A program made the position numbers and the translations under genes. This document shows, in pieces, positions 2,590-4,943 of a DNA stretch of 4,943 nucleotides. Location: the IMG/VR virus record IMGVR_UViG_2531839449_000028. One strand, written 5' to 3'. Source of the DNA: a virus (taxonomy: Duplodnaviria > Heunggongvirae > Uroviricota > Caudoviricetes). Under the pieces are notes generated by a model that was not told the DNA's origin, ran no database searches, and saw only the letters and a list, made by a program, of their open reading frames with translations. The stretch's first letter is position 1. Every line of letters starts with the position of its first letter.

Positions 2590-4943
2590 ATGGGGGCTGA
2601 TAAAACGAACAACATAATGACACTATCCTCTGGTGTCTCACAGCCTTTGCTTGCTGATGTTCAATATTTCGAACTCTATAGTAGTTCGGCTCTTAACAGA
2701 AAACTAAAAAATATTGTTTTGCCTGGCTTTTACTGTGGATTTGAACCAGTTCCCGGCACAGGGTTGAGCGTCCGTATAACTTCTGAAAATTCAGAAGGTA
2801 AAGGGGCTGCTTCAGTAGATGTAAATAATGTTCAGATATCCGTTCAGCAAATAGAAGATGTGACTGTCTCGGTAAAGGCAGGGGCTACCAACATTATTGT
2901 GCTGGAAGCCAATTTTGAACATGGTGTAAAAACGACACAGGTAGATAGCACATCTTCTGTCAGTGCTGCAAGAATTTACGCGCGTACGGACAATACTATT
3001 GGGCAGAATCAAATTGAATTATGTCGAGTTATCGTGCCTAGCGGCGCAACGGCTGTGACTAAAGAAATGATTGTGCTTAAATACCGGGTTAACCGTGCTG
3101 TTGGTGTCGAATTCTCTAATGAAATAAGCAGTACAGAAGAAAGAAAAGCGGCTACACCTCTGGCTGTCAAAACTCTCCATGATTTGGTTGATACAAAAGC
3201 TCCGCTCGATAGTCCGCATCTGTCAGGTACGCCGACTTCGCCAACACCTGAACCCGGTACAAAAAACACACAGATCGCAAATGCGGCCTTTGTCTATGCA
3301 GCTATAAATGCGCTTATCAATGGTGCTCCGGGAACGATGGACACGCTGAAAGAAATTGCAGCAGCCATCAATAACGACCCAAAATTCAGCGAAACTATCA
3401 ATAACGCACTGGCTCTTAAAGCTCCTTTGGCAAGCCCTGTGTTCACAGGTACGCCGACAGCGCCTACGGCCTCACAAGGCACAAATAGCACGCAGATTGC
3501 AAATACAGCCTTTGTTAAGGAAGCCATAACGGCACTTATCAACGGTGCACCTGGCACACTGGATACGCTTAAAGAAATAGCTGCTGCGATCAATAACGAC
3601 CCGAATTTCAGCACAACTATCAATAATGCCCTGGCTCTCAAAGCGCCTTTGGCAAGCCCTGCATTAACGGGTGTCCCTACTGCGCCGACCGCCGCACAGG
3701 GCACAAATAATACGCAGATTGCTACGACCGCTTATGTAAGAGCTGCCATTTCCGCATTGGTTGGTTCATCACCAGAAGCTCTTGATACCCTGAATGAGCT
3801 TGCCGCAGCACTTGGCAATGACCCGAACTTTGCGACAACAATGACAAATGCGCTGGCAGGCAAACAGCCTCTGGATGCAACTTTAACCGCGCTTGCTGCC
3901 CTTGCGACTGGTGCAAACAAACTGCCTTATTTCACCGGTAAGGATACGGTAGCGCAGACTGATTTAACGTCAGTCGGTCGCGATATTCTGGCTAAAACAA
4001 GCACACTGGCCGTTATCCAATACCTTGGTTTAAGAGAACTCGGTACCAGCGGTGAAAAGATCCCCCTGTTGAGTACGGCTAACACATGGAGTGCGCGCCA
4101 GACTTTCAACGGCGGGATCACCGGGGCGCTGACAGGGAACGCCGACACCGCGACGAAATTAAAAACAGCCAGAAACATTAATGGCGTCAGATTCGATGGT
4201 TCGGCTGACATTAATATCAATACTCTGGTATCACGCGGTCGAGTAACTGCTCTGGCGTCGAATGCGCAGGGGACATCCGGGATTCAGCTGTATGAGGCAT
4301 ACAACAATGGCTACCCTTCCCTCTATGGCAATGTGCTTCACCTTAAAGGTGCCACCGCTGCTGGCGAAGGTGAGTTATTCATTGGCTGGAGTGGCACGAG
4401 CGGTGACCATGCGCCCGTACATATCCGTTCGCGGCGGGATACTGATTCTGCCAACTGGTCTGAATGGGCGCAGGTCTATACGTCAAAAGATTCCGTTCCC
4501 GGCGTTAATGCCAAAGGGAATCAGGACACCTCTGGCAATGCGGCTACAGCGACTAAATTGCAGACAGCACGTACTATTAACGGTGTCTCGTTTGATGGTT
4601 CTAAAAATATTGAGTTAACGGTGGAAGATTTAAATCTTGAGCAAACCGTAGAATTAGCCGCAGGAGCATTACAGAAAAACCAGAACGGCGCAGATATTCC
4701 GGGAAAAGATACCTTCACCAAAAATATTGGTGCCTGTCGCGCATATAGCGCATGGGTGGATATTGGTGGCGATAGTCAGGTCTGGACAACTGCGCAATTT
4801 ATTTCGTGGCTGGAGAGTCAGGGGGCATTTAACCATCCTTACTGGATGTGCAAAGGCTCATGGGCTTATGCAAATAATAAGGTCATTACAGATACAGGTT
4901 GCGGAAATATTTGTCTTGCAGGTGCTGTGGTGGAAGTTATTGG
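2590..4943 (+). CDS. Phage tail fibre protein (P2 gpH / lambda Stf / Mu S family), 3'-partial; it runs off the window end
   Basis: RBS GAGGG at 2579-2583, ATG at 2590; frame 1 is open for about 784 codons to the window end, which I checked by translating through. The shaft region (...KAPLASPALTGVPTAPTAAQGTNNTQIATTAYVRAAISALVGSSPEALDTLNELAAALGNDPNFATTMTNALAGKQPLDATLTALAALATGANKLPYFTG...VGRDILAKTS...) closely resembles my recollection of P2 gpH. It also carries the phage fibre repeats (...NADTATKLKTARNINGVRFDGSADINI...) and a ...LQKNQNGADIPGKD... segment recalled from lambdoid Stf proteins. Confidence 0.9.
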   Translation, partial: MGADKTNNIMTLSSGVSQPLLADVQYFELYSSSALNRKLKNIVLPGFYCGFEPVPGTGLSVRITSENSEGKGAASVDVNNVQISVQQIEDVTVSVKAGATNIIVLEANFEHGVKTTQVDSTSSVSAARIYARTDNTIGQNQIELCRVIVPSGATAVTKEMIVLKYRVNRAVGVEFSNEISSTEERKAATPLAVKTLHDLVDTKAPLDSPHLSGTPTSPTPEPGTKNTQIANAAFVYAAINALINGAPGTMDTLKEIAAAINNDPKFSETINNALALKAPLASPVFTGTPTAPTASQGTNSTQIANTAFVKEAITALINGAPGTLDTLKEIAAAINNDPNFSTTINNALALKAPLASPALTGVPTAPTAAQGTNNTQIATTAYVRAAISALVGSSPEALDTLNELAAALGNDPNFATTMTNALAGKQPLDATLTALAALATGANKLPYFTGKDTVAQTDLTSVGRDILAKTSTLAVIQYLGLRELGTSGEKIPLLSTANTWSARQTFNGGITGALTGNADTATKLKTARNINGVRFDGSADININTLVSRGRVTALASNAQGTSGIQLYEAYNNGYPSLYGNVLHLKGATAAGEGELFIGWSGTSGDHAPVHIRSRRDTDSANWSEWAQVYTSKDSVPGVNAKGNQDTSGNAATATKLQTARTINGVSFDGSKNIELTVEDLNLEQTVELAAGALQKNQNGADIPGKDTFTKNIGACRAYSAWVDIGGDSQVWTTAQFISWLESQGAFNHPYWMCKGSWAYANNKVITDTGCGNICLAGAVVEVI
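3211..3876 (+). repeat. Three tandem, in-frame 222-bp repeats (copies at 3211-3432, 3433-3654 and 3655-3876), each encoding a 74-aa fibre shaft module
   Basis: Each copy begins AGYCCG (Ser-Pro) and encodes SP.(L/F).G.PT.PT...GT.NTQIA..A(F/Y)V..AI.AL(I/V)...P....DTL.E(I/L)AAA(I/L).NDP.F..T(I/M).NALA.K.PL(A/D). Copies 1 and 2 are nearly identical in protein over INGAPGT.DTLKEIAAAINNDP.FS.TINNALALKAPLA, while copy 3 is more divergent. Confidence 0.85.
4138..4220 (+). repeat. Phage tail-fibre repeat motif, copy A (NADTATKLKTARNINGVRFDGSADININ)
   Basis: In-frame motif N-A-x-T-A-T-K-L-x-T-A-R-x-I-N-G-V-x-F-D-G-S, the short repeat typical of lambda Stf / T4-type fibre proteins as I recall it. It is paired with copy B about 400 bp downstream. 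Confidence 0.6.
4537..4620 (+). repeat. Phage tail-fibre repeat motif, copy B (NAATATKLQTARTINGVSFDGSKNIELT)
   Basis: Second in-frame copy of the same motif; 21 of 28 residues are identical to copy A. Confidence 0.6.

Follow-up and report, generated by a model that had tools for sequence, protein, structure and literature searches.

The open reading frame (ORF) at positions 2590–4943 of the viral DNA stretch IMGVR_UViG_2531839449_000028 is, we are highly confident, gene S, the long tail fiber gene of a D6-like plasmid prophage of the P1 family, with its invertible C-segment oriented so as to express the S′ (Mu S′-like) tip. The whole stretch of 4943 nucleotides (nt) is referred to below as the window, and positions are counted from its first letter. 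A first-pass annotation, made from the letters and ORFs alone, had taken the same frame for a new mosaic fiber. The assignment reported here carries little weight as a discovery, since the gene, its lineage, the inversion switch and the tail fiber mosaicism of P1, Mu, P2 and lambda are already known from annotated records and the literature. What is new is only mildly so: the predicted shoulder/TssK-like fold of the P1-family fiber anchor and an extra P1-like shaft unit relative to D6.

Identity and lineage of the fiber gene

2590–4943, + strand: gene S (long tail fiber), codons 1–784 of 999; no stop codon is reached before the window ends

Translation from the ATG at 2590 to the window end yields 784 codons without a single stop or frameshift. 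The product is 100% identical to residues 1–784 of WP_236507727.1, annotated as a 999-residue tail fiber protein of plasmid pWP8-S17-ESBL-05_2 (pWP8 below). This 92-kb Escherichia coli plasmid is 99.9% identical to the window from position 895 on (895–4943). Phage D6 (GenBank MF356679) is ~95% identical to the window across 900–4650, and its equivalent genes are annotated as ‘similar to P1’ bplA, 16, R and S. The identity to pWP8, together with the identity to D6 and the annotation of the D6 genes, makes the element a D6-like member of the P1-family plasmid prophages. The lineage comprises phage D6 itself and ~90-kb phage-plasmids of E. coli, Salmonella and Shigella. DNA of the D6-type S 5′ end (2590–3300) is carried by 81 of the 5426 complete E. 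coli genomes, plasmid-borne in every case, and in 106 plasmids of PLSDB (86 from Escherichia, 14 from Salmonella and 6 from Shigella).

Gene order agrees with this assignment. Homologs of the BplA C-terminus, gp16 and gpR are encoded directly upstream of S, giving the synteny bplA-16-R-S, and the longer order bplA-16-R-S-U-U′-Sv′-cin is annotated in D6, P1 and P7 and found in pWP8. The closest characterized relatives are the D6 proteins S and S′ (orf35/orf32). D6 resembles the window in gp16 (100% identity), gpR (99.3%) and residues 1–172 of S (98.8%), and has an identical 26-bp cixR site. P1 gpS/S′ is built in the same way, with an N-terminal domain homologous to that of the window protein, a/b repeats, a cixR site at the Sc/Sv junction, inverted repeats of ~0.6 kb and Mu-like unique parts. 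It differs from the window by a 44-residue insertion after the N-terminal domain and by having two full b units plus partial a units.

The first-pass annotation had instead proposed that the fiber was newly assembled by modular exchange from an unrecognised N-terminus serving an unusual tail module, a P2 H-like shaft and a lambda Stf-like distal region. Several observations speak for such a reading. Residues 1–172 indeed have no detectable similarity to P2 gpH, lambda orf401/orf314 (Stf) or Mu S, and searches of Pfam, NCBIfam and PDB sequences left this part of the protein entirely uncovered. The P2 H-like shaft is real, and short StfR-type motifs are present. However, the N-terminal domain is 98.8% identical to that of D6 S, and residues 10–172 align to residues 10–177 of P1/P7 gpS at 42% identity (E about 1e-38), so that it can hardly be called unrecognised; the tail module, with its bplA-16-R-S synteny, is of the published D6/P1 type, and the D6-type N-terminal DNA is as widely distributed as described above. 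The distal region (4138–4943), taken for lambda Stf-like, gave no match to lambda Stf over residues 476–784, even at E ≤ 10 and word size 2. It corresponds to P1/P7/D6 Sv (83–96% identity) followed by Mu S′/P7 Sv (92–98%). The StfR-type motifs hold only at the level of motifs: two short ones are shared with K-12 StfR (29 residues at 72% and 23 residues at 65% identity), one within residues 476–683 and the other within residues 684–784.

Collinearity decides the matter. Full-length pWP8 S and D6 S′ are collinear at 94.7% identity with a single gap, which corresponds to an extra 74-residue repeat unit in pWP8 S, and P7 gpS is collinear with the window protein over residues 10–784 (59% identity overall). 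The first-pass annotation had itself named full-length collinear homology to one known fiber as the observation that would speak against it. Since the protein is collinear with both D6 S′ and P7 gpS, it is not a new mosaic, and we regard a novel assembly of this kind as very improbable.

Other known fiber types fit the window less well than gene S of the D6/P1 type. P2 gpH has the shaft repeat and the linker in common with the window protein, but neither its N-terminal domain nor the part beyond cix is similar; P2 also lacks an inversion system. Neither an H-type N-terminal domain nor the J-I-H-G synteny of P2 was found here, the upstream genes being 16 and R of P1/D6. As for a lambda Stf-type fiber, neither orf401 nor orf314 matches residues 1–172 or 476–784. 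Mu S′ (gp52, the fiber of the G(-) state of the Gin/gix G-segment) shares its distal part with the window, and a serine-invertase switch operates on the fiber genes in both systems. The constant part of the Mu fiber (169 residues) is, however, unrelated to the first 680 residues of the window protein, and Mu lacks the 0.6-kb inverted repeats. A Mu-type Sc fused at gix was not found in the window: Mu Sc is absent and the position equivalent to gix is degenerate.

The cixR site, the invertible C-segment and the S′-type tip

4013–4038, no strand: cixR, the 26-bp Cin recombination site TTATCCAATACC-TT-GGTTTAAGAGAA, within the frame of S, where Sc meets Sv (exact 26/26 match)
4015–4644, + strand: one arm of the 630-nt inverted repeat flanking the invertible C-segment; it encodes the Sv part common to both fiber variants (about residues 476–685)
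4645–4943, + strand: beginning of the unique Sv portion, which is specific to one orientation (Mu S′/P7 Sv/P1 S′ type); the receptor-binding tip is outside the window

The 26-mer at 4013–4038, TTATCCAATACCTTGGTTTAAGAGAA, is the sequence found at the annotated cixR of D6 and P7, and none of 200 shuffled sequences matched it. Going by the homologous P7/P1 annotation, the crossover falls at 4025/4026, between the central T residues and inside codon 479. At cixR, the constant part Sc (residues 1–479) continues into either of two alternative 3′ ends. The site had been missed by the first-pass annotation, where it fell into the gap between the second and the third of the proposed regions. The junction of these two regions is a functional DNA-inversion site and more than a module boundary. 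That invertase sites mark module junctions was reportedly noted in tail fiber papers of 1992.

The window contains the first arm of the inverted repeat (4015–4644), and we read the second arm, cixL and cin from the 99.9%-identical pWP8. There, the two arms (10121–10750 and 13794–14423) are 630 nt long, 98% complementary and 3043 nt apart, and window positions 4015–4637 match both of them. The interval between the arms contains the alternative Sv′ and two chaperone genes; the arms are followed by cixL and by cin, whose product is 98.9% identical to P1 Cin. Downstream of the window itself, cixL would be expected to read TTCTCTTAAACCAAGGTTTAGGATTG on the + strand. Any chaperone or invertase had been placed downstream of the window by the first-pass annotation. 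This holds for the chaperones, the alternative tip and cin, as judged from the near-identical plasmids, but the crossover site and one repeat arm are inside. Over residues 476–683, encoded by the arm, identity is 95.7% with P1 S, 95.2% with D6 S′ and only 83% with P7.

In plasmid p99_1145-4 the same segment is inverted: window positions 4015–4943 match its opposite strand at 99.8% identity, and the chaperone genes are swapped. Since pWP8 and p99_1145-4 carry the segment in opposite orientations, both states occur in nature. Comparative evidence thus indicates that the segment inverts, and it would presumably be active in the present replicon as well. Relative to the deposited P1 and D6 genomes, the orientation in the window is the one that expresses S′; the C-segment of the deposited D6 genome is opposite to that of the window, and the deposited orientation of P7 is the same. 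In the model established for P1, Cin inverts the cixR–cixL segment, exchanges Sv+U for Sv′+U′ and thereby changes the host range (10.1101/2022.07.24.501295; PMC10999674). A published analysis of D6-like prophages reports that D6 and P1 resemble each other most in the tail fiber inversion region, and that this region varies from one D6-like plasmid to another (PMC6799933). Applied to the window, this model would have the Cin serine invertase, encoded ~4.4 kb downstream beyond the window, recombine cixR within the S frame with the inverted cixL; flipping of the ~4.3-kb segment would replace the S 3′ end and its chaperone (Sv+U) by Sv′+U′ and so switch the host range.

A different kind of diversification, either by a diversity-generating retroelement or by a multi-site shufflon of the p15B Min type, would have to replace the two-state Cin switch. 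The first of these had been mentioned as a possible downstream feature by the first-pass annotation. In pWP8, the 7 kb downstream contain no annotated reverse transcriptase, and no long repeats other than the C-segment arms and the U/U′ pair. The window has a single cix-like core (ACCNNGGTTT), one long inverted-repeat pair surrounds the segment, and the similarity to Mtd concerns the fold of the anchor and not a variable tip. We consider such a mechanism the least probable of all the readings weighed here, and retain the two-state Cin switch.

The only other candidate for a cix or gix site in the window is a degenerate gix-like relic at ~4618–4650, which we rejected as non-functional. It lies at the end of the inverted-repeat arm, exactly where the homology to Mu Sv′ starts, and has lost the ACCNNGGTTT core. 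The relic encodes VEDLNLEQ, which may be compared with IQNLGLQE of Mu and IQYLGLRE at cixR.

Beyond the arm, the sequence becomes Mu-like. Positions 4645–4943 share 96.8% DNA identity with Mu Sv′, and over residues 684–784 identity amounts to 98% with P7 S, 92% with Mu S′ (residues 173–273) and 75% with the S′ proteins of D6 and P1; in this part P7 and Mu are closer than D6. The structure of the Mu gp52 (S′) fiber (PDB 8JU3) is matched at E 2.9e-62. In pWP8, what remains of S past the window end shares 99% identity with Mu S′, and the chaperone encoded next to it 98.9% with Mu U′. P7 gpS agrees with the window in this unique Sv part (98%) and in orientation but differs in its N-terminus (42%), in the inverted-repeat arm (83%) and in its chaperone U, which is split into Ua and Ub. 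The two ORFs Ua/Ub are annotated at P7 8164–8697, while the pWP8 homolog (11698–12231) is one intact 177-residue protein, 98–100% identical to both halves. This comparison suggests a frameshift or nonsense change in the chaperone of the P7 record.

The tip expressed by this copy would be of the S′ type, and its receptor specificity may follow that type. The S′ tip of P1 depends on O-antigen; it adsorbs to Shigella flexneri 2a/5a, E. coli O3 and O111:B4 lipopolysaccharide (LPS). The fiber type may be linked to the hosts in which the plasmids circulate, given that the P1(S′) type is reported to bind O111:B4 LPS. An S′-type tip is of relevance because these plasmids reside in O111 and other Shiga-toxin-producing E. 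coli.

Many carriers of matching plasmids are Shiga-toxin-producing E. coli from cattle (O111:H8, O111:H11, O45:H2 and O22:H8).

Anchor domain and shaft of the constant part

2590–3105, + strand: N-terminal domain, residues 1–172, the predicted baseplate-docking ‘shoulder’ of gpS, D6 subtype
3109–3204, + strand: Phage_fiber_2 motif, residues 174–205, at the shaft start (Pfam PF03406, E 2.7e-7)
3196–3861, + strand: three tandem 222-nt (74-residue) shaft units, 3196–3417, 3418–3639 and 3640–3861 (Tandem Repeats Finder period 222)
3862–4012, + strand: distal end of the constant part Sc, residues 425–474, a linker common to P2 gpH and the N-terminus of lambda orf314

As judged by sequence comparison, gene S is a mosaic at two levels. 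The first consists of ancient modules, namely a P1-type anchor, a P2 H-like shaft and Mu S′-like distal parts, all of which can already be found in the GenBank annotation of P1. The second is a recent patchwork among P1-family S genes, visible in the 90-nt DNA identity profile. The modular exchange postulated by the first-pass annotation is therefore borne out in general terms: identity to the P1 lineage increases from 42% (residues 1–172) through 67% (repeats) to 96% (inverted-repeat arm) and gives way to a part that is 92–98% Mu S′/P7 Sv-like. Its remark that guanine-cytosine content climbs from the N-terminal part to the repeats was also correct (0.41–0.43 over 2551–3150 versus 0.48–0.54 over 3150–4500).

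The P2 H-like character of the shaft, likewise proposed at first pass, is confirmed. Residues 351–475 are 76.8% identical to P2 H 251–375, and over the longer alignment of residues 249–483 with H 140–383 identity is 52%. Among themselves the three shaft units are 58–77% identical at the protein level, and they are equivalent to the repeated elements a0, a1, b1 and b2 of the P1 Sc annotation. Overall, residues 173–475 are 81–88% identical to D6 and 67% to P1/P7. The difference between the window and D6 lies in the number of units, three versus two. Unit 2 (3418–3639) is absent from D6 and is 93–96% identical to P1/P7 DNA (b1), while its flanks are 97–100% D6-like. This pattern suggests that unit 2 was either gained by recombination with a P1-type S gene or lost in D6. 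Several E. coli plasmids align with the window in one piece over 895–4637 or further, which suggests the three-unit form in them as well.

The linker that follows the repeats is again D6-like (98–100% DNA identity across 3862–4012), and residues 418–483 are 65% identical to residues 1–66 of lambda orf314, the sole lambda match, which thus falls upstream of the distal region 4138–4943. The similarity to P2 H and that to lambda orf314 both end at residue 483, that is, at nt 4038, the last base of cixR.

The distance between the anchor and its P1 counterpart matches that seen for the products of the neighboring genes. Identity to P1 is 42% for the anchor, 39% for the BplA C-terminus, 44% for gp16 and 45% for gpR, and all four are 98.7–100% identical to D6. 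This co-divergence of the N-terminal domain with the adjacent baseplate genes indicates that the anchor stayed with its baseplate while the rest of the fiber was exchanged. The shared divergence fits an anchor matched to its baseplate.

To characterize the anchor further, we turned to remote homologs and structure prediction. A first homolog search with residues 1–172 returned 13 close matches, mostly truncated, and the AlphaFold2 (AF2) model built on a 10-sequence alignment was unusable (predicted local distance difference test score, pLDDT, of 45). An exhaustive HMMER search of 1.84 billion representatives placed 254 clusters in the family at E ≤ 1e-3 and supplied the 53-sequence alignment used for the final AF2 monomer model (pLDDT 86.9). 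Among the 150 best matches listed, the domain sits at or near the N-terminus of proteins of 94–2717 residues, some of which have unrelated distal modules, for example T4 gp34-, gp36- and gp37-type domains. A Foldseek comparison of the model with PDB gave marginal values (best E 1.5e-3). The N-terminal domain is predicted from this model to adopt the receptor-binding protein (RBP) ‘shoulder’/TssK-N fold, a baseplate-docking fold. Proteins with this fold include the RBPs of lactococcal phages p2 and 1358, the long tail fiber of cyanophage A-1(L), HFTV1 gp42 and TssK of the type VI secretion system (T6SS); they are 6–19% identical in sequence to the anchor, and the likeness comes from the AF2 monomer model. 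As the anchor has neither a Pfam model nor a solved structure, the predicted RBP-shoulder/TssK fold offers a testable model for the attachment of P1-type fibers to the baseplate.

How the anchor might dock can be considered by analogy. In cyanophage A-1(L), the shoulder domain docks on gp31B, a protein of the wedge, and on the loop at gp32's C-terminus (PMC10966104). In the preprint on the P1 baseplate, the fiber is not resolved, and attachment is proposed at gp16 residues 240–278 and/or the gpR dimer; the C-terminal region of gp16 is unmodelled in the map and proposed there as the fiber attachment point. Comparison of the D6 and P1 types shows that residues ~200–281 of gp16 (the last ~80 residues) are its least conserved part, with 25–35% identity in a forced alignment versus up to 75% in the core. 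By analogy with these systems, the fiber protein would trimerize, and the trimer of its 172-residue shoulder-fold N-terminus would dock the fiber on the baseplate wedge of BplA, gp16 and gpR, encoded immediately upstream; the constant shaft Sc, made of three 74-residue units and the linker, would extend from it as far as cixR.

A more specific proposal, to which we give somewhat less than an even chance, is that the D6-type and P1-type anchors form a natural co-variation pair (S shoulder at 42% identity, gp16 C-terminal ~80 residues) that marks the fiber–baseplate interface of P1-like phages. In analogy to the A-1(L) fiber and TssK–TssFG, the S shoulder trimer would then bind BplA and the gp16 C-terminal tail, and the extra P1-derived 74-residue unit would reflect ongoing recombination between D6-like and P1-like elements that alters fiber length.

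Upstream genes and the insertion sequence in bplA

1–894, + strand: 3′ part of an IS3-family insertion sequence (IS), with the transposase orfB at 156–854 (Pfam rve, HTH_21 and rve_3)
895–1190, + strand: 3′ remnant of bplA (baseplate J/gp6-like wedge gene), cut by the IS (phrog_1369, baseplate protein)
1201–2046, + strand: gp16 homolog (baseplate wedge, T4 gp7-like); 100% identical to D6 orf37 and 44% to P1 gp16 (PDB 9ay5 Gp16, E 2.4e-59)
2141–2587, + strand: gpR homolog (baseplate wedge/fiber attachment); 99.3% identical to D6 orf36 and 45% to P1 gpR (phrog_2032, E 1.5e-74)

The R stop codon ends 2 nt ahead of the S start codon. Homology to D6 and pWP8 starts at position 895, which corresponds to about codon 379 of the 476 codons of bplA; the ORF at 954–1190 is 98.7% identical to D6 BplA 399–476. 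The sequence preceding this point encodes an IS3 family transposase, so annotated in the matching records and present in thousands of E. coli records. The element at 1–894 may be IS629/IS1203-like.

With bplA split in this way, the replicon is probably tail-defective, and virions are probably not made. This raises the question of whether the tail module is a decaying remnant, in which S would be an unexpressed or unused relic and the switch irrelevant and perhaps lost downstream. Such a state would modify rather than replace the identification as gene S of a D6-like prophage. Besides the IS abutting bplA at about codon 379, it is favored by the IS3-family insertion inside S of the sister plasmid pVP441 and by the documented occurrence of defective D6-like prophage variants (PMC6799933). 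On the other hand, S, R and gene 16 are intact here and 99–100% identical to functional-looking copies, the 784 codons of S being without a frameshift, and so recent an IS insertion says nothing about the identity or the working of the gene. We therefore regard a dead module as rather unlikely, and continue to consider S a fiber gene under a two-state switch.

Several points nevertheless weigh against this assignment or narrow it. Since bplA is disrupted in this copy, assembly of the fiber into particles may never occur. The only match covering 100% of the window, pVP441, has its IS elsewhere: full coverage is reached only by joining non-collinear pieces, the IS sitting within S, which excludes pVP441 as the source replicon; no source replicon turned up in the collections. 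No late promoter box of the P1 type was recognised upstream of R, neither the P1 -22 box AAGTTACTT nor the TACAAT -10 being conserved in the window or D6. The downstream components of the switch (cixL, cin and the chaperones), together with the last 215 codons of S, lie beyond the window and are deduced from near-identical plasmids. Finally, N-terminal docking is predicted from a monomer model and a fold analogy at 12–19% identity.

In pVP441 (NZ_CP121358, 7696–12008), the insertion divides S into two pseudogene parts; relative to the window, the IS family and the tail module are the same and the insertion site is different.

Scans for sigma-70 promoters and terminators on the + strand of the window gave nothing useful, and an Rfam scan of the window returned no family. 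Antisense ORFs are present within S (for example, 3294–3704 on the minus strand), with no sign of being genes. A perfect hairpin, TTCTTCCCCCGCATTTGGGGGAAGAA, is located at ~2050–2075, between gene 16 and R, equivalent to the position that a GC hairpin occupies shortly upstream of the late promoter LPs in P1.

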